Counted from the stretch's first letter, positions 2 to 7,038 are shown. The stretch: 7,049 nt of DNA from Acaryochloris thomasi RCC1774 (GCF_003231495.1 NZ_PQWO01000051.1:1-7049), one strand, 5' to 3'. The notes: a model not told the origin generated them from the sequence alone. Numbers and translations: made by a program.

Positions 2-24
2 GGCACTGTCCAGCTAAGAAGTGA
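2..24. repeat. Terminal inverted repeat of the IS1-family element (transposase-distal end)
   Basis: Pairs with the reverse complement of 1047-1069 at 16/23 positions, including the identical terminal heptamer GGCACTG. Confidence 0.6.
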
Positions 25-658
25 CGCATCTAAAACTTCTGACCACCAATATCTCAGCAATTTCAACTGGCCGCTGGATGAATCCCAACACCATCGCAGG
101 GGTGCGCTTGTGTCGGTGGCCCCAGTGAGGACGGCACCAATTGTGGATCAATCTCTGTACGTTCAATGCTCTCTGTAGTCCCTCAACCTTTTTGGCATAG
201 TGATTCTGGCGTCGGCGATAGCCACTTGCCCGTCGTCTCAAGGAACTGTTGAGTGCTTCATTGTGATTTGCATGGACCTCGCTCTTGGGGCTAATGGCCG
301 TGTAAGGATGCTCTCGATTCACCCACTCTACCCGAGGTTTTCCCTGAGAGCCTTTGATTTTCATTGCCACCTCTAATCCCGCTCGCCACACTTTTCGGAA
401 AGGGTACGCCTGTGTCGTTGCACTCCCTGGCAGGTAGACACTCGCTAGCTTCCACAACTCGTTTGAGTATCGACGTTCTCCATCGGTAAACCAACGAATC
501 GATAAACTCGGTTTAGCCCAATCCCAAGCGGCTTTGACACTCTCTTCAAATAACGCCCCATTCTTGAGACCGGCGCGGGCCTCTAACCAATAGCGACTGT
601 CACGTTCGATGAAATGAATCGTCCAGCCTTCACTGAGCCAGGGGGGGATAATTCTCAC
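14..658 (-). CDS. IS1-family transposase, C-terminal (DDE catalytic) part, +1 frame relative to the upstream part
   Basis: The translation continues the DDE domain: ...PPWLSEGWTIHFIERDSRYW..., WFTDGERRYSNELW, HANHNEALNSSLRRRASGYRRRQNHYAKKVEGLQRALNVQRLIHNW. The last segment resembles the IS1 InsB [21 protein letters not shown]...HYLN region. Removing one C from the coding-strand C7 run (641-647) would fuse it to the 630-1010 frame as ...GENYPPWLSEGW.... Confidence 0.8.
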   Translation of the reverse strand: MRIIPPWLSEGWTIHFIERDSRYWLEARAGLKNGALFEESVKAAWDWAKPSLSIRWFTDGERRYSNELWKLASVYLPGSATTQAYPFRKVWRAGLEVAMKIKGSQGKPRVEWVNREHPYTAISPKSEVHANHNEALNSSLRRRASGYRRRQNHYAKKVEGLQRALNVQRLIHNWCRPHWGHRHKRTPAMVLGFIQRPVEIAEILVVRSFRCVTS

Positions 659-1010
659 CTACGCGAGTGTACACTTCATCACCTTCAATCGTGATATCTG
701 ACTCCTCTGAAGAAGGGGGTGACCAGCTTGATAATTGAGCCGATAAACGCTCTTCCCAGCGGATGATACTGCTGGGGGATTTCCCTAGCACTCTCCCGGC
801 GGCTCTAATACCAAGCCCTTCGGTGCGGGCATTGATGGCCATCGATATTGTCTCGACTGGGGTTCTCAGTCTCGCCATCGGTGTCCCACTGCGCTCGTTA
901 AAGCGACGACCGCAATCTGTACAGAGGAAGTACTGAACCACCTGAGCTGTTTTCAAAGTCTTGGTCCCGTTCTTGACCACATTCTCGTGATGACAATAGA
1001 TGCACTGCAT
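630..1010 (-). CDS. IS1-family transposase, N-terminal part (InsA-like zinc finger + HTH, running into the first DDE motif); frame ends at a C7 run
   Basis: The translation MQCIYCHHENVVKNGT...LCTDCGRRF is a CxxC-x(n)-CxxC zinc ribbon, followed by an HTH-like helix region and IEGDEVYTRVGEN. I place the start at the ATG at 1010-1008 because it sits just before the zinc finger. The ORF track extends to a TTG at 1046, which follows an AAGGAG only 3 nt upstream, so that start is possible but less likely. The frame terminates at 630-632 just after the homopolymer. Confidence 0.75.
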   Translation of the reverse strand: MQCIYCHHENVVKNGTKTLKTAQVVQYFLCTDCGRRFNERSGTPMARLRTPVETISMAINARTEGLGIRAAGRVLGKSPSSIIRWEERLSAQLSSWSPPSSEESDITIEGDEVYTRVGENYPPLAQ

Positions 1011-1046
1011 TAGCCTGAAACTTATACTGAAATTACATTCTAGCAA

Positions 1047-1069
1047 TCACTCCTTAAGGAAGCAGTGCC
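1047..1069. repeat. Terminal inverted repeat of the IS1-family element (transposase-proximal end)
   Basis: The reverse complement GGCACTGCTTCCTTAAGGAGTGA matches 2-24. The DUF29 homology resumes immediately outside it, at about 1070. Confidence 0.6.
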
Positions 1070-1341
1070 TAATCGAGGAAGTTGAGGATTTGGGCGGGCG
1101 CCATCGAGACCGGGTTGAAAGCTATTTGAGTAATTTGCTCCTGCGCCTGCTTAAGCGCGAGTATCAAGCCGATAAGCGAACCACCAGTTGGGACGTAAGC
1201 ATTAAGACATCAGCCCTAAATATTCGTAAAGAGATTAAGCGCCATCCCTCATTACGTCGTCATTGTATTGAAAGCTTTGAAGTGACCTATCAGTATGCAC
1301 GAGAACTAGCGTCGATTGAGTCTCAACTCGACCGACCTTGA
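1070..1341 (+). pseudogene. DUF29-family protein gene, 5'-truncated by the IS1-family insertion
   Basis: The translation from about 1072 is IEEVEDLGGRHRDRVESYLSNLLLRLLKREYQADKRTTSWDVSIKTSALNIRKEIKRHPSLRRHCIESFEVTYQYARELASIESQL. This follows the DUF29 pattern as I recall it (IEEIESLGrsekrel.s.l..Ll.HLLKw.YQp.krsrSW..TI.eqR..I..ll...PSLk..l...)). The roughly 45 N-terminal residues typical of the family are absent. The first 23 codons of the 1000-1341 ORF are antisense IS sequence, not DUF29. Confidence 0.75.
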
Positions 1342-1453: not shown

Positions 1454-3742
1454 TTATAGTGCAGAGATATTGAAGATTTTTTGTAAATGCATTTCAACCA
1501 TTGCTTTTTCTCTGCCAGTCAAATCAGATTGGGTGGCAGTCGATAACCGAAGATAATTCAGGTAAGAAACCCAGTCCTTATCTTGCAACCAGTCTTTACT
1601 CGAATTATTGCTATTAATGATCCAATATGACCAAACAACCGTGTCAAGAATAATAATTGGCCAGTCTTTTACGTGGTTGTGAATTCGCTTTTGACACTCA
1701 ACTAATCTACGTATATCTCTTTCTATCTCCTGAATATGATAAGTATACTGTTTTGACTCAATATAGTAGTTCAATCGATAAACTACTATTTGCGAAATCA
1801 AGACCGGGTCATTAAAGGCAAGTTTCTCAGCTTTCAAAAGATCAGAAAAGCCATTCTCCGCGTAGGGAAATCTAAAGTCAGGTTCTCTGTTTATATCATC
1901 AGCGCTAAGAAGACAATTAAGTATTAATGTTTGATTACCTCTTTCAAGATAATATCGAGACTCATCTGAATCAATATGCTTTCTTCTTAGATCAATAGCT
2001 CTGTCGATTAACCTTAGGCTTTCTCTCAGGCCGAGAACTGAGTAATTTGTTTTTCTAACACAGATAGACAAAAAGTAGAACCCTTCAGATGGATATACAA
2101 ATGTCATATTCTTAGGAGAAGATGTTAGAGCCAGCTCGCAATATCTTTTCGCCAGCTTCCATTCACCTAAAGTACTTAATACAAATGACAGTGCAAGAAT
2201 TCTTTCGTACTTTGCATCGCTACTCAAATCCTTCTGAGTATTGAATGAATCTAGTATTTCCCACCACTGGACGGACAAAACTTTGGAGTAGTCCTCAATG
2301 AATTTCTTCGCTTCATTTGAATAAAAGTGCAAAGAATAGAGTGATATAGCTTTTTTGCTATGCAGCTCATGTTTCGTATCTGAGCTAACCACTTGTATAT
2401 CGAGGTTGGATTTAGAAGAGGCTGTTACAGCCTGTAGAGATACTCCCAATGTATGATGAGCCTTTTTCCACTCATCTGCTATGTTATCAACTCTTACTTC
2501 CAAGCGATGTCCTAGGTCTTCATTATTTCTAATGAACTTCATTAATCGATGAACGGACAACTGGCTAGGACGATCTGTCGGAATAATAGATCTGCTATGT
2601 GCATCATATTGCTCTGATTTACTTACATCTACTATGGTGGCAGCATTGATCCAAAATTTCCTGATATTTTGAAGCTTCTCAAAATTCTTTTTGAGAAAAT
2701 CATGAACCTCTAATTCTCCCTCTTCCTTTCTCCGTGATGCTTTGTTTGAAGACTCAATAAAATTTGTTACGGTATAAAGATGCTCTTTTAGTTCGTCGGT
2801 TGTGGTGCGCCGATAAAAATCGAGGAAAATCCTCGGATGTCTCAAAGATGACAAAGAAGGTTTCTTTTTAGGATGCTCACTTTCACTCAATCTGTGCATT
2901 GCTTCGCTTCTAGTAACCAAAACTATCTTTATTTGGCGTTGACTCAATACCTGATTCATCTTGTCAATGGTTCCTAGTGCTATCGCATCCAGATAGCACG
3001 AGTTGGAGCTTGACTCATGCCGCCTCAAAGTAATCAGTTTTTTGTATCTTCTCAATACTGGCTCACTAACCTTCTCTTCGTGGGAAAAATTAAAACTTGA
3101 ATCATAGTTTTGGATAAATGATGTAGCATCCTGAAATAACTCATCACTTGTCAAGTTCATTAAGCGCTGTAGAGGAAGTGAGTGCTGCAAAAAAACACCT
3201 AGTAATGTTGAGGAGTGTTCGGTCAAGAACTCCCATGCTTTATTGAACTCACTATCATTTAAGTCTTTACTATTATCTGTTCTTTTAAGTAAGTCTTGAA
3301 ATGTAGAGTTTTCTTGAAGATATTTTAATTCTTTTGCTATTTCATAGTCGGATGATAGTATCTTGGAAAGTTCTTCTTTTGAGAGATTGGAAAGCAAAAA
3401 ATCCCATTCTTTTTCGTAGGATTGTAGTAAAATGCATCTCTTTGATTGATGAAATAAGAAGTGTAATGCATTGTACTGTAAAGCTAAAGCAACGCTATCC
3501 GGTATGTCTTGAAATATTGAAAATTCTTTAGCAGTTTTTTCCCTAAATACATATGCATATATTTCAGAGAAATCAACTGCATAAACATATTCAAAGTGTT
3601 CTTCTTCCCGATCCTCAATTACCTGTGATAATTCCCTTTTTAGTATTCGACAAAGATTCGTGTACTTCTTTATCCCTATTTTGTCAGGTATCTTTATCTC
3701 ACCAGCAAAGTTAGTTTCATAGGAAGTATCATAAGAAAACAT
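1454..3742 (-). CDS. Hypothetical 762-aa protein (operon gene 3); the C-terminal half looks like TPR-like/alpha-solenoid repeats and the N-terminal region is unassigned
   Basis: This is an uninterrupted 2.3 kb ORF in AT-rich DNA, where random stops would be frequent. An SD-like GCAGG sits about 8 nt upstream of the ATG (minus-strand sequence AAAAGCAGGTTTATTATG). Only 15 nt separate it from the upstream gene. Residues ~465-660 contain TPR-like amphipathic segments (for example AKYERILALSFVLSTLGEWKLAKRYCELALTSSP and ESLRLIDRAIDLRRKH). I could not spot a Walker A/P-loop motif. Confidence 0.85.
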   Translation of the reverse strand: MFSYDTSYETNFAGEIKIPDKIGIKKYTNLCRILKRELSQVIEDREEEHFEYVYAVDFSEIYAYVFREKTAKEFSIFQDIPDSVALALQYNALHFLFHQSKRCILLQSYEKEWDFLLSNLSKEELSKILSSDYEIAKELKYLQENSTFQDLLKRTDNSKDLNDSEFNKAWEFLTEHSSTLLGVFLQHSLPLQRLMNLTSDELFQDATSFIQNYDSSFNFSHEEKVSEPVLRRYKKLITLRRHESSSNSCYLDAIALGTIDKMNQVLSQRQIKIVLVTRSEAMHRLSESEHPKKKPSLSSLRHPRIFLDFYRRTTTDELKEHLYTVTNFIESSNKASRRKEEGELEVHDFLKKNFEKLQNIRKFWINAATIVDVSKSEQYDAHSRSIIPTDRPSQLSVHRLMKFIRNNEDLGHRLEVRVDNIADEWKKAHHTLGVSLQAVTASSKSNLDIQVVSSDTKHELHSKKAISLYSLHFYSNEAKKFIEDYSKVLSVQWWEILDSFNTQKDLSSDAKYERILALSFVLSTLGEWKLAKRYCELALTSSPKNMTFVYPSEGFYFLSICVRKTNYSVLGLRESLRLIDRAIDLRRKHIDSDESRYYLERGNQTLILNCLLSADDINREPDFRFPYAENGFSDLLKAEKLAFNDPVLISQIVVYRLNYYIESKQYTYHIQEIERDIRRLVECQKRIHNHVKDWPIIILDTVVWSYWIINSNNSSKDWLQDKDWVSYLNYLRLSTATQSDLTGREKAMVEMHLQKIFNISAL

Positions 3743-3757
3743 AATAAACCTGCTTTT

Positions 3758-4780
3758 CTATACAATTTCATGAAAAAGGCCTAGTTTCTCTGGATCGGTA
3801 ATCGATGCCACTAAGTCTTCACGAATAAATTTTCGAGTGCGTTCGGCCAGAGTGTTTAGGCCTTCTCCTCTAGATTCTCTAAGCTGTTCAAATAGTTCAA
3901 AAACTGTCTGAAAATAGTATATTGACTCCTGGTCCTCTTTTACTAAGACAGCTTCGCAATTATTGAGTGGATTAGTTGATGAAATAGCGATTTCGCGATT
4001 ATGGTAACTTAAGTGTATTGCTGGAGTGGAACCTGAGCAGAGCAATTGAATGAATGGCTTCCAATAGTCTGAATTCATTCTAAAAAAAACATCAGCTATC
4101 GTAGAGATAGAGACAATTCTTACAAACTCTGACATTGTTATAGAGTAATTGTTAGCTATTTCATCTGTAATATTTGTGCCTTTGGATACGTCAATACTAT
4201 TGGCAAAAATAGGGAAGTATATATAGTAATCTTCTGGTTCACACGTGCAGAGACCTAGAAAAATAATTGGAGCATAGTTCTTAAAATGCTCTTTTCTGCT
4301 CAGCTCTAAAAAAAGTTTCTTCACTTTGGGTAAAGGGGCAAAACCGGCGATTGTAGAAAGCAAGATGGCTGTAGTTCTATATTCTTCGTCTAAGCTCAAT
4401 CTATGTAGCTTCTGCTGTAAAAAAATCACTCTGAACTGCTCAATAGATTTTGATGCTCGAAGATAGGCTGCGAGATAAGAAAGCCGTTGAAGAGTTATGC
4501 CTCGATGTGCTGAAGGGGACCATTCACATATAGCTGTTACTGTTGCAGCCTTGAATTCCTCTTGCTTGCGAGGCTCGAGATTCTTGAAAAGATTTTGAAG
4601 CTGTAAAAGTGCTGAACTTCTATGGCTAAGTTCTAGATCATCAAACTTGATACCATCAGGATTAGAAAAGGCTATAAGGAGAGCTGTAGAAAGAGTCTCT
4701 TCTGTATGCGAGTTTATCCATTCTAGATTTGCCTGATCAGCTTCAGTTATTGTGTCTTCCTTTTTTTGTATATCTTGCAT
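3758..4780 (-). CDS. Hypothetical 340-aa protein (operon gene 2), predicted mostly alpha-helical, no recognisable catalytic motif
   Basis: This is an uninterrupted 1 kb ORF, co-directional with its neighbours, 34 nt downstream of gene 1 and 15 nt upstream of gene 3. The sequence is leucine- and helix-former-rich with no motif I recognise. It contains T8 (4082-4089, read on the coding strand) and A7 (4761-4767, read on the coding strand) runs without frame disruption. Confidence 0.8.
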   Translation of the reverse strand: MQDIQKKEDTITEADQANLEWINSHTEETLSTALLIAFSNPDGIKFDDLELSHRSSALLQLQNLFKNLEPRKQEEFKAATVTAICEWSPSAHRGITLQRLSYLAAYLRASKSIEQFRVIFLQQKLHRLSLDEEYRTTAILLSTIAGFAPLPKVKKLFLELSRKEHFKNYAPIIFLGLCTCEPEDYYIYFPIFANSIDVSKGTNITDEIANNYSITMSEFVRIVSISTIADVFFRMNSDYWKPFIQLLCSGSTPAIHLSYHNREIAISSTNPLNNCEAVLVKEDQESIYYFQTVFELFEQLRESRGEGLNTLAERTRKFIREDLVASITDPEKLGLFHEIV

Positions 4781-4814
4781 AATTTCTAAGAAAAGCTTAT
4801 CCTACGTAAATTTA

Positions 4815-5810
4815 CTAATCTCTTCTCAGGTTGTCGAGGACTTCATCTAGCAAAATGCCGAGCTTTATATTGCTTCCTTCTGGAAAATTTATTTCTGTGA
4901 TTTTTTCTTGATTGTGATTGCTGCTTCGTCTTATCCTCCCTAGATTTCGTAATGAGTATTTATTAGAAAAATTTATTTTTGGATGTATAACCTCAGGAGC
5001 ATCAGGCTCACAAGTAGAAAGATTTATGGTTCTACCACAGCCGTCATCCGTCATTACTGAACAATAAACAGAGTCCTTTGTACAATCGCTATCCAAAAAA
5101 GTTGGTGCTTTTAACTCATCTATATTTACTGCTTGAGTTGGGTATTGTATTTCAAGAATACTCTCTCCCGATTGGTAGGCAACAAGACCTAGGCGATCTC
5201 TGACTATGGATCCCAAATCATCGTTTTTTTCAATTGAACTCACCTCCATGATTTCTTGAATAAAGCTTGATTTAGTGATCCAAGCAAACGGACGCCTTGT
5301 CTGCATATAGCTTTCCGCATTATACTTCGTCTCCCAACGCACTAATATGTCTGCAATTTGTTCATCGCTTGGACCCTGATCGTCAAAAATCAAAGTCCCT
5401 TCTTTGATATGATATTTTATGAAACTTTTCCAAGACATAACTCGTGAGACATTAAAATTACTGCTTTTATTTGGGCCATAACTGCATTGACAAAAAAAAG
5501 ATTTTTCATCTAAATCTTTTGTCTTTATTACTTCGTTAAAAATTTTATATGCTTCGATATTTTTTTGAGAAGGGCTCATTTCTTCAAACCTATCTTGGCA
5601 TCTTAGGAATGCCCACTTTTTTGCTAGCTCTTCAAAAAAATCAGATAATGCCTCACCCGGTAAACGATTATTGTCAATATCATGATAAATATTCTTGAGT
5701 GTGAGCCTTCCCTCTATTGATAGATCCATGATTGCTCTCCACTCTTTGATGTAGTCTTTCATTAAAGAACCCCTATTTCTGTGAAAAGTGAATGCTTTTA
5801 GTTGACGCAT
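4815..5810 (-). CDS. Hypothetical 331-aa protein (operon gene 1); possible nuclease-like D...ExK motif; start codon uncertain (alternative ATG at 5762)
   Basis: This is an uninterrupted 1 kb ORF. The ATG at 5810 has no obvious SD. The internal ATG at 5762 (Met17) is preceded by AGGGG about 7 nt upstream and may be the true start. Motifs noted are TLIFDD (aa 139-144) ... ILVRWETK (aa 155-162), and a C-terminal block RDRLGL...KAPTFLD...GCGRTINL...APEVIHP. Confidence 0.8.
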   Translation of the reverse strand: MRQLKAFTFHRNRGSLMKDYIKEWRAIMDLSIEGRLTLKNIYHDIDNNRLPGEALSDFFEELAKKWAFLRCQDRFEEMSPSQKNIEAYKIFNEVIKTKDLDEKSFFCQCSYGPNKSSNFNVSRVMSWKSFIKYHIKEGTLIFDDQGPSDEQIADILVRWETKYNAESYMQTRRPFAWITKSSFIQEIMEVSSIEKNDDLGSIVRDRLGLVAYQSGESILEIQYPTQAVNIDELKAPTFLDSDCTKDSVYCSVMTDDGCGRTINLSTCEPDAPEVIHPKINFSNKYSLRNLGRIRRSSNHNQEKITEINFPEGSNIKLGILLDEVLDNLRRD

Positions 5811-5881
5811 GACTTGAAGTTCAGAATACTTTACGGTTGGCGTTATTGTTTGATTCTTTACTAAGATCTTATGTCTTCTGG

Positions 5882-5899
5882 ACAGGGCTGTTTTAAATT
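5882..5899. repeat. Left terminal inverted repeat (IRL) of the ISAs1-family element
   Basis: Matches the reverse complement of 7032-7049 at 16/18 positions. Confidence 0.8.
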
Positions 5900-5918
5900 T
5901 CCCGTAGAAAAATTAGGA

Positions 5919-5945
5919 TCAATCCACATCACGATAGTGGATTGA
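5919..5945 (+). promoter_or_regulatory. Stem-loop (9-bp perfect stem, 9-nt loop) ending 3 nt before the ISAs1 transposase ATG; possible occlusion of the translation-initiation region
   Basis: TCAATCCAC (5919-5927) is the exact reverse complement of GTGGATTGA (5937-5945), with loop ATCACGATA. The only SD-like purines (GGA, 5939-5941) lie inside the 3' arm. The ATG is at 5949. Confidence 0.4.
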
Positions 5946-5948
5946 CCC

Positions 5949-6512
5949 ATGAGCACCCTTATAGAAGAACTGAAACAAGTCCCTGATTTCCGCAAATCCC
6001 ATGGCAGATCTCACCCGCTGTGGATTCTGCTGCTATTGATAGTCATGGGCATCCTAGCCGGATATCAGGGGTATCGTCCTCTACACACATTTGCCGAAGA
6101 GCATCAACATGCTTTGTGTGAACTATTTGGGCTTAAGCAGTTGAAAGTCCCTTCCCACTCAACGTTTCGGCGCGTGATGATGGGCATTGACTTCCTTGCC
6201 CTCTCTCACCAATTCGAAGCATGGATGCTATCGCAGCAACAGACTCACTCACCAGATAATCATATTGCCTCCATTGACGGTAAACGTATTCGTCAGCGTC
6301 TTACTGATGAGAACGGTAAGCAGCGCTTTGTCGGATTGGTTAGTCTATATGCCGTCGAAGCGGGCATCACGCTCAAGCTTGAGGCACTCACTCAGCAGGA
6401 CAATAGCGAGATTAAGGTGGTTCAGACTCTGTTAGAAACGCTGCAGGTAGAGGGATTGCTACTCACGATGGATGCCTTACACGCACAAAAAAACGCTTCA
6501 ACAAATCCTTGA
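5949..6512 (+). CDS. ISAs1-family transposase, N-terminal part (DDE_Tnp_1-associated domain plus the first half of the DDE domain); frame lost at an A7 run
   Basis: Family motifs are as listed for the element. The frame reads ...TMDALHAQKNASTNP* after the A7 run at 6487-6493. Confidence 0.85.
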   Translation: MSTLIEELKQVPDFRKSHGRSHPLWILLLLIVMGILAGYQGYRPLHTFAEEHQHALCELFGLKQLKVPSHSTFRRVMMGIDFLALSHQFEAWMLSQQQTHSPDNHIASIDGKRIRQRLTDENGKQRFVGLVSLYAVEAGITLKLEALTQQDNSEIKVVQTLLETLQVEGLLLTMDALHAQKNASTNP

Positions 6513-7038
6513 TTCAGACAATGACTATTTAGTGGCAGTCAAAAGTAATCAGGGTCGTCTTTACCAGCACCTACAGACCTATACTCAATACCTCAAGCCG
6601 ATAGCTGAGCACACCCATCGCCAACACCAGAGAGGGCGAAACGAACATCGTTGCATCAAGGTCTATCGTCCAGTGGGTTTAGCGTTAGAAGAGTGGGAGG
6701 CGATTGAGTCTGTACTCTGTGTCGAGCGATGGGGCACTCGTAAAGGCAAGGACTATCACCACAGGGCCTATTACATCAGTTCGGTATTGACCTCACCTCA
6801 ACAGTGGCAATCGCTAGTCCGCGAGCATTGGGGAATAGAGAACCGGTTGCATTGGCCAAAGGATGTTGTCTTTGGCGAAGATGATTATCGACTTGAAGAT
6901 GAACAAGCACTACTCAATTGGTCGTTGCTCAGAACAATTGTGATTAATCTGCTGAGATTGAATGGCTTCCAATCGCTCAAAGCCGCTATGACAAAGCTTG
7001 CTAATCGGGTTGATGTTATTTTTTCGCTGTTAACTTAA
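6472..7038 (+). CDS. ISAs1-family transposase, C-terminal part (+1 frame relative to the N-terminal part)
   Basis: From the A-run onward the translation reads ...KKTLQQILDSDNDYLVAVKSNQGRLY...REHWGIENRLHWPKDVVFGEDDYRLEDEQALLNWSLLRTIVINLLR, a typical IS4/ISAs1-type C-terminal DDE region. Deleting one A from A7 gives the continuous sequence DALHAQKTLQQIL. The ATG at 6472 is probably not a genuine start. Confidence 0.85.
   Translation: MPYTHKKTLQQILDSDNDYLVAVKSNQGRLYQHLQTYTQYLKPIAEHTHRQHQRGRNEHRCIKVYRPVGLALEEWEAIESVLCVERWGTRKGKDYHHRAYYISSVLTSPQQWQSLVREHWGIENRLHWPKDVVFGEDDYRLEDEQALLNWSLLRTIVINLLRLNGFQSLKAAMTKLANRVDVIFSLLT

Follow-up and report, generated by a model that had tools for sequence, protein, structure and literature searches.

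What does a block of three long, co-directional genes encode when it lies, with a composition unlike that of its host, between two different insertion sequences (IS) in a cyanobacterial draft genome, and what might its products do? The window analysed here spans an entire contig (7,049 bp) from Acaryochloris thomasi RCC1774, and the block, referred to below as the cassette or as the triad of genes A, B and C, occupies positions 1454-5810 on the minus strand. The original prediction, made from this DNA alone, described three open reading frames (ORFs) of 331, 340 and 762 amino acids (aa) separated by 34 and 15 nt, which is exactly what was found, and proposed an undescribed conflict or defence system of unrecognizable proteins. 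A, B and C are one conserved unit whose members travel and diverge together and, as judged by sequence and profile comparison, they lie outside all curated families, defence models and solved structures, save for the TPR half of C. The reading that we prefer, at a probability of roughly 0.4, is that of an accessory conflict module independent of nucleoside triphosphatases (NTPases), in which C would be a metal-dependent hydrolase carried on a TPR scaffold; a role in defence or conflict is plausible as a reasonable hypothesis and is not presented as a finding.

The genes of the cassette are as follows.

5810..4815, minus strand: gene A, longest ORF, 331 aa
ATG at 5762 (second ATG), minus strand: likelier start of gene A, giving 315 aa
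4780..3758, minus strand: gene B, 340 aa (C1752_16970)
3742..1454, minus strand: gene C, 762 aa (C1752_16969)

The start of A at 5762 agrees with the NCBI gene model and with the N-termini of homologues, and has an AGGGG element upstream. The intergenic gaps lie at 4781-4814 (A-B, 34 nt) and 3743-3757 (B-C, 15 nt). The products, with masses of 36, 39 and 90 kDa for A, B and C, are all acidic and soluble, and no transmembrane segment was found in any of them. An origin of these ORFs by chance is very unlikely, given 762 codons at 36 % GC, and homologues of all three products exist elsewhere.

Recurrence, co-inheritance and composition

A word-indexed search of 5.8 billion clusters, which is seed-limited, returned four relatives for C and a single one for A and for B, all on contigs that share the gene order; a motif-seeded scan of 185,579 species genomes, also seed-limited, gave five loci, and motif-seeded scans of species genomes and JGI metagenomes added 17 loci. 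When hidden Markov models of A, B and C were applied to the collected loci, an intact A→B→C order emerged at 15 independent loci of Cyanobacteria, Anaerolineae and Acidobacteriota, namely the window, L001, L002, L003, L006, L007-L009, L010, L011, L012, L014, L015, L017 and L018, with duplicates merged (L004 is the same locus as L003, and L021 the same as L010). L006 comes from an Anaerolineae metagenome-assembled genome (MAG), and L007-L009 and L010 from Acidobacteriota MAGs; the contig end cuts A in L002 and C in L017, and L014 is a diverged triad. The closest relative, L001, shares 43-47 % identity with the window proteins.

The A-B junction overlaps in nine of the 15 loci, and at the B-C junction a 4-nt overlap is present in five (L007, L008, L011, L017 and L012, with an inferred start in L012). 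Among the 13 complete triads, the pairwise identities of the three proteins are strongly correlated (Mantel correlations of 0.86 for A-B, 0.90 for B-C and 0.82 for A-C; p = 2e-4 each), and since shared ancestry feeds such a correlation it is evidence of co-inheritance and not of physical interaction. Gene order in 15 loci, overlapping junctions and correlated divergence bear out the single module that had been proposed, and co-occurrence of the genes in conserved order extends across unrelated genomes of three phyla.

The family of C reaches well beyond the intact triads. A full HMMER scan of 1.84 billion representatives recovered 558 clusters, defined at 50 % identity, with E <= 1e-3, of which 156 reach E <= 1e-30, and nearly all are 700-800 aa long; the family size is a lower bound, so that at least 558 clusters are covered by no Pfam or NCBIfam model, and none of the ten C clusters sampled carries an informative name. 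In L016, L019 and L022 the head motifs described below are retained by distant C-like genes that lie downstream of two small partner genes, for which hhalign detects no relationship to A or B (probability below 1 %). Since C-like genes occur with other partners in these three loci, or alone in L005, C appears to be the core of the module and its partners replaceable, which suggests partner replacement around a constant C core.

Two of these arrangements may be described further. In L019 (6425-10313), as in L016 and L022, the C-like proteins retain YAVDFSEI, LxSRS and the TPR half. L005 (1-4218) encodes a full-length C homologue of 777 aa, and the 1.7 kb upstream of it contains neither A nor B but only the gene of a 173-aa protein whose N-terminus resembles a signal peptide and a gap of 850 nt free of ORFs; this is possibly a solo C or a decayed operon.

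With a GC content of 36.4 %, the cassette stands apart from its IS1 flank (51.3 %), its ISAs1 flank (47.4 %) and the draft genome of A. thomasi (50.2 %; PMC6002478), so that its composition is foreign to the host, as had been noted from the window. The same tendency recurs elsewhere: in 12 of 13 loci the GC content of the triad falls below that of its flanks, typically by 5-9 points and in hosts ranging from 28 to 64 % GC (sign test, p ~0.003). Low GC relative to the flanks, a patchy phyletic spread and the IS context together point to an accessory, horizontally moving module, and the cassette was probably acquired horizontally as a mobile accessory element.

The head and TPR array of C, and its partners

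Searches of Pfam-A, NCBIfam, PHROGs and PADLOC gave no match for A or B and a sub-threshold TPR match for C alone. Further Pfam runs, which took in 56 C members, 14 A members, 40 spliced head cores, the family consensuses and ten over-long C members, added only TPR_12, which passes its threshold, and weak HEAT_2 and STAS signals. The view that the proteins are unrecognizable thus stands with respect to Pfam, NCBIfam, PHROGs, PADLOC and the PDB, and gives way for the TPR half of C. NTPase families have no Pfam or NCBIfam match in A, B or C, and a Walker A motif is present in 0/14 A, 0/14 B and 1/56 C sequences, the last a chance match that is not in register. The absence of a P-loop that had been read from the window is thereby upheld, and A, B and C lack the domain that marks STAND, AAA+ or other NTPase-driven sensors (Avs, NLR-like). 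HExxH, GAGxS and GIY-YIG motifs are likewise absent from the A, B and C families, and a literature search found no description of such a three-gene system.

Protein C is divided into the following parts, as delimited from the alignment and from a model built with AlphaFold2 (AF2).

2807..3607, minus strand: head domain, residues 46-312, predicted α/β (AF2 and alignment)
3572-3574 (D57), 3563-3565 (E60), 3407-3409 (E112) and 2987-2989 (D252), minus strand: invariant acidic residues of the head (alignment)
3017-3382, minus strand: helical insert in the head, residues 121-242, poorly conserved (18 % identity)
2333..2806, minus strand: central linker, residues 313-470, helical, of low model confidence and 17 % mean identity
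1457..2332, minus strand: TPR array, residues 471-762 (AF2, Foldseek, TPR_12)

The alignment of C comprises 56 diverse members with 17-44 % identity to the window protein, and the only residues invariant in it are D57, E60, E112, D252, E553 and R596. The two halves of the head core are the best-conserved parts of the protein (30-32 % identity) and the linker is the least conserved. Within the head, conservation is concentrated in the motifs YAVDFSEIYAY, LLxPYAxEL, LDAxA, LVTRS and LRHPRxF, and residue by residue it is distributed as follows.

D57, E60, E112, D252: 56/56 members each
S279: 55/56 members
R278: 53/56 members
P303: 53/56 members
N263: 52/56 members
R304: 51/56 members
R301: 49/56 members
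H302: 47/56 members

In the AF2 model, the conserved residues of the head fall at strand ends and helix starts of a β-α-β scaffold: D57 ends the strand 51-56, E112 lies early in the helix that follows strand 103-105, D252 is placed near the start of helix 246-269, which leads into strand 271-276 ending in T-R-S, and LRH forms a further short strand. The simplest reading of the invariant carboxylate quartet, accompanied as it is by conserved Arg, Ser, Asn and His residues, is a site for a divalent metal. The head is a candidate for metal-dependent catalysis or for ligand binding.

The C-terminal half of C is a TPR array. Residues 476-761 of the AF2 model are all-helical with predicted local distance difference test (pLDDT) values of 75-90, and Foldseek matched the model to the TPR proteins LGN, PilF, KLC1 and IFIT5 and to subunits of the APC/C (probability 0.99-1.0, E ~3e-3 to 3e-2). 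The family consensus passes the Pfam TPR_12 cutoff (30.3 bits against 30.1; E = 4.8e-7), while single members stay below it. The repeat half ascribed to the large protein is thus confirmed by TPR_12, AF2 and Foldseek. Against the PDB and BFVD, Foldseek searches with the whole of C returned only TPR, Sel1 and SNAP repeats, the TPR half dominating the search; a few glycosyltransferase matches, which could not be placed on C, probably reflect targets that contain TPRs. Several charged residues of the array are almost as constant as the acidic residues of the head (E553 and R596 in 56/56 members, E513 in 55/56, E600 in 53/56 and R563 in 52/56), which hints at a conserved peptide- or ligand-binding groove. 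E513, E553, R563, R596 and E600 are spaced along successive repeats.

The two partners are less easily characterized. Protein A, for which 14 sequences were aligned (residue numbers refer to the 315-aa form), has a helical N-terminal part and a β-rich C-terminal domain, the latter with the motifs RDxLGL, APTF(L/I)(D/E)G, DGWGRT.NL and PEAVH; G192, P208, T221 and E257 are invariant and W8, D28, C91, S106, W161, R188, G243 and G275 nearly so. Neither its members nor their consensus match Pfam, and A has no PDB match. The nuclease-like motifs that had been suspected in A were not substantiated by family, motif or structure searches, and the one acidic cluster that is fully invariant belongs to the head of C, not to A. 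Protein B is predicted to be helical and has the lowest conservation in the triad (mean pairwise identity 21 %), with W87 and F147 as its only invariant residues, L100, R108, G146 and P149 as near-invariant ones, and a motif FLGLCxCxPxxY kept among closer relatives. Its family consensus gives a sub-threshold HEAT_2 signal (E = 8.9e-4; 19.9 bits against a cutoff of 27.7), in keeping with the helical protein foreseen from the window. Poor conservation and the weak HEAT_2 signal argue for a structural adaptor rather than an enzyme, and B is a probable α-solenoid adaptor.

A possible conflict module and its alternatives

In the arrangement that we favour, A, B and C would be soluble, cytoplasmic and probably joined in a single complex. 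C would be its core, with a head for which we infer a divalent-metal-dependent phosphodiesterase or nuclease-type site (D57, E60, E112 and D252) and a TPR array whose conserved charged groove would dock a constant partner. B, as an α-solenoid-like adaptor, and A, as a regulatory or sensing subunit, would dock on the TPR groove of C and gate the head; the A/B/TPR part would keep the hydrolase head inactive until a trigger releases it, in a role of the defence or abortive-infection type. Complex formation, catalysis, the regulatory logic and the conflict role are all matters that we infer.

Two known folds were considered for the head of C. The order and predicted placement of its conserved residues resemble those of a PIN domain: an Asp ends β1 (YAVDFSE), a Glu lies in the helix after β2 (PYAxEL), an Asp stands at a helix start (LDAxA), a strand ends in T-R-S (LVTRS) and the last strand is followed by Pro (LRHPR); the test for PIN, given below, failed. 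In the AF2 model D57, E112 and D252 take PIN-like secondary-structure positions, but the fourth acidic position is occupied by Ser279. Unlike a PIN domain, the head shows no profile similarity to the family and is split by a helical insert of ~120-130 residues, and no PIN match from Pfam or NCBIfam was obtained with the full proteins, the 56 members or the 40 spliced cores (E <= 10). STAS, on the other hand, is the only recurrent profile signal of the head: one full-length C member matches at E = 3e-3 and eight of the 40 spliced cores match at E <= 10 (best 3.8e-4), always over one and the same stretch of 41 residues, LDAxA...LVTRS..MH, which corresponds to profile positions 49-89 of 106. The likeness to STAS/SpoIIAA proteins, including Csx3, is a weak match over ~41 residues, for which hhalign scores marginally above controls; unlike STAS domains, the head offers no phosphorylatable Ser where DSSG would stand, and an invariant acidic quartet is foreign to STAS. 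PIN and STAS alike count metal-dependent RNases among their members, STAS by way of Csx3, an RNase that was unified with the STAS fold by Kaur et al. (PMC7159879). A HEPN Rx4-6H motif (R278...H283) was also considered and rejected: the His is present in only 31/56 members (55 %), and the motif sits at a strand-helix junction, not in an all-α domain.

A number of results weigh against a catalytic head and against a role in conflict. Profile searches gave no significant fold or family match for the head. Compared by hhalign with the two VapC proteins of L008, the head profile reached a probability of 0.1 % with and without its insert, and with a five-sequence VapC profile (including 6nkl, 3zvk and 3tnd) it reached 0.4-0.6 %; these values equal that of the reversed control. 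The consensus core scores 18.9 bits for STAS where Pfam demands 22.6, and profile-profile comparison with three solved SpoIIAA proteins (hhalign probability 5.5 %; P = 0.007 against 0.085-0.66 for controls) was not significant. The invariant acidic residues could bind a ligand or a metal without any catalysis. PDB sequence and profile searches with 4- to 56-sequence profiles of A, B, C and the head core yielded nothing meaningful, and none of the 5,027 models of PADLOC-DB v2.0 matches A, B or C even at E <= 1. The AF2 model of C is mediocre (pLDDT 62 overall, ~55-82 in the head), and that of A, built from a two-sequence alignment, has a pLDDT of 39.6, with only residues 1-80 at 54-85, and was uninformative in Foldseek. 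The TPR groove is conserved rather than diversifying, and the invariance of its charges fits a constant partner, not a diversifying phage-sensor surface. No relative was found on 72,556 plasmids, 50,697 phage genomes or 2.9 M viral contigs. Pfam annotation of 115 neighbouring ORFs revealed many housekeeping and regulatory genes, among them plsX/fabH, an E1 dehydrogenase, QRPTase, DAHP synthase, response regulators and ABC transporters, and around the L007 triad stand genes that we take, by eye from their N-terminal sequences, to be lptB, rpoN and rapZ.

The expectation of a defence island is weakened: housekeeping and regulatory genes prevail among the 115 ORFs, which comes close to refuting it, and defence-type genes occur sporadically, so that island enrichment appears weak. 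Of the conflict or defence system originally proposed, the module, its foreign composition and its lack of any known family stand, whereas weak islands, the absence of plasmid or phage relatives and the conserved TPR groove speak against it.

The main rival to a conflict module is a regulatory or assembly complex serving niche physiology in environmental bacteria, in which the TPR array of C and a HEAT-like B would be two repeat scaffolds and the head a STAS-like, nucleotide- or ligand-binding domain active in partner switching instead of a nuclease. This rival, which we hold to be somewhat unlikely, draws on STAS as the sole recurrent signal of the head (8/40 cores, best E = 3.8e-4; P = 0.007), on invariant groove charges of the kind expected for a constant partner, on largely housekeeping or regulatory neighbours, on the lack of any plasmid, phage or PADLOC match and on the sizeable C family of uniform length. 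The STAS signals, however, are all sub-threshold and confined to ~41 residues, and four invariant acidic residues are no hallmark of STAS; patchiness across phyla, low GC relative to the flanks and the IS context favour an accessory mobile set, and no conserved neighbours tie the triad to a pathway in any of the loci compared. The distribution of roles proposed originally, with A as a nuclease-like effector, B as an adaptor and C as a pure TPR sensor, is improbable. It could appeal to the conserved C-terminal domain of A, with its invariant E257 and T221 and near-invariant R188, D28, C91 and S106, and to a gene order (small, helical, large with repeats) that arguably resembles known tripartite systems, but A matches no nuclease family, motif or structure, full invariance of an acidic cluster is seen only in the head of C, and the TPR array is conserved, not hypervariable. 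Moreover, C persists with unrelated partners (L016, L019, L022) or alone (L005), which would make C, and not A, the indispensable catalytic candidate.

A selfish addiction cassette of the toxin-antitoxin (TA) kind, acting by post-segregational killing and travelling with IS elements to no benefit of the host, would account for IS on both sides with a disrupted gene alongside, for a GC content below that of the flanks in 12/13 loci, for TA-type genes nearby (VapC in L008 and L012, AbiE in L019) and for the tight translational coupling typical of TA operons. Its probability is nevertheless low: three large proteins of 36, 39 and 90 kDa are unlike type II TA pairs, the flanking IS are of different families and form no composite transposon, none of the relatives lies on plasmids or phages, where addiction modules thrive, and other loci have ordinary chromosomal neighbours without flanking IS. 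A type II TA system in the strict sense was rejected, as there are three genes of these sizes and no TA family match. It is highly improbable that the locus is an artefact, whether a contaminant contig or a set of decaying pseudogenes. The contig is indeed short (7 kb), compositionally odd and terminated by IS copies, the adjacent transposase is frameshifted, and the draft genome was filtered only by BLAST matches to cyanobacteria (PMC6002478). All three ORFs, however, are intact and full-length relative to their homologues, and L001, the closest relative, is too diverged (43-47 % identity) for recent cross-sample contamination. The flanks (~47-51 % GC, with a DUF29 gene) fit the host, DUF29 genes being typically cyanobacterial.

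The conflict module that we prefer has parallels among described systems. In these phyla, conflict systems typically place an effector head N-terminal to a TPR array (PMC7159879), and the TPR-terminated conflict proteins described there, including STAND/Avs, likewise join an N-terminal effector-like head to C-terminal TPRs, occur in Cyanobacteria/Chloroflexi-type hosts with a patchy spread suggestive of horizontal gene transfer (HGT), and occasionally have CHAT, FHA or PNP-effector neighbours. The triad shares with them the build of a TPR-scaffolded multi-gene accessory module; it differs in having no NTPase (STAND, MoxR or GTPase) in its proteins or conserved neighbours, an uncatalogued head, a conserved TPR groove and two dedicated, co-inherited partners that form private families. 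The systems covered by PADLOC (Avs, Olokun, Azaca, Menshen and the PDC candidates) are similarly multi-gene operons with a repeat-bearing large subunit and foreign composition, but none of their models matches A, B or C.

A bolder form of the conflict reading, which we consider unlikely, would make the triad the founding case of a new NTPase-independent immune system spread by HGT among Cyanobacteria, Chloroflexota and Acidobacteriota, with an effector that is either a metal-dependent nuclease or phosphodiesterase of new fold or a PIN- or STAS/Csx3-like domain of extreme divergence with a large helical insert, set on a TPR scaffold and gated by two dedicated, co-evolving partners, of which A would be a wholly new domain. 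If the triad is a conflict system, it would add an NTPase-free, TPR-scaffolded architecture to the prokaryotic immune repertoire, and with it perhaps a novel hydrolase fold and two novel protein families, from Acidobacteriota, Chloroflexota and Cyanobacteria that defence screens centred on E. coli and Bacillus have barely sampled. Even with a function outside defence, a conserved three-protein machine that current databases leave unannotated has been defined. D57, E60, E112 and D252 of C, the charged groove of its TPR array, and E257, T221 and R188 of A provide handles for experiment.

Flanking elements and neighbouring genes

The remaining features of the window are the following.

14-1046, minus strand: IS1-family element with two overlapping ORFs (Pfam/NCBIfam); the contig end falls inside the element
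1000-1341, plus strand: remnant of a DUF29 gene, 5'-truncated, convergent with C and 112 nt from it
5811..5948, no strand assigned: divergent intergenic region between A and the ISAs1 transposase, presumed to hold the operon promoter and the IS end
5949-7038, plus strand: ISAs1-family transposase in two overlapping ORFs (NF033564 positions 2-151 and 148-314)

The cassette had been described as bracketed by two IS elements next to a disrupted gene, and an IS1 element, an ISAs1 element and a truncated DUF29 gene are indeed present; since the contig ends at repeated IS copies, however, the bracketing is partly an assembly break. A composite transposon was rejected, the left element being of the IS1 family and the right one of the ISAs1 family, with no long terminal repeats. 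Within the IS1 element, the ORF at 630-1046 (138 aa) carries an IS1/IS1595 Zn-ribbon and a helix-turn-helix, and the downstream ORF at 14-658 (214 aa), presumably the catalytic part, has no Pfam or NCBIfam match. The DUF29 remnant lacks ~27 N-terminal profile positions and takes its first 21 codons from the IS1 end, which together indicate truncation by insertion of the IS. The split of the ISAs1 transposase may mean that the gene is a pseudogene with a frameshift, that the frameshift is programmed or that the sequence contains an error. A scan of the window for consensus promoters and terminators gave matches at chance level, none of them convincing in 5811..5948, and the window contains no Rfam RNA genes, tRNAs, tandem repeats or informative long repeats.

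Among the 115 neighbouring ORFs of the other loci, defence models matched AbiEi/Eii, an SNF2 DpdE/ZorD-like protein, a PNP effector, PDC-S01 and PDC-M05A, counted as raw matches. Three neighbouring ORFs contain a PIN domain and are VapC-like by sequence in L008 and L012; AbiEi/AbiEii and a ParB_N protein adjoin the distant variant of L019; the SNF2 DpdE/ZorD-like helicase lies 7 kb from the triad of L008, and a PDC-S01 ATPase is found near that of L011. In L007 (2426-14225; Acidobacteriota MAG), the triad and one or two extra genes stand between lptB-rpoN and the rapZ-like gene. The lptB-rpoN-rapZ cluster is usually contiguous, and this suggests an insertion of the triad into a conserved housekeeping locus.

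In L009, a protein of 912 aa encoded at 16921-19659, 4.8 kb downstream of the triad, matches the PADLOC 'PN-superfamily effector' and PDC-M60C over residues 152-239 and is, on that basis, a separate candidate conflict gene. The only clear conflict- or signalling-type immediate neighbours are the CHAT and FHA genes of L003, from a MAG (GCA_965193725.1) that appears, from its neighbouring gene families, to be cyanobacterial: a CHAT (caspase-like) protein of 1,106 aa is encoded at 3634-6954 on the same strand, 244 nt before the triad, and a convergent gene at 11566-12111, after the triad, encodes an FHA-domain protein.

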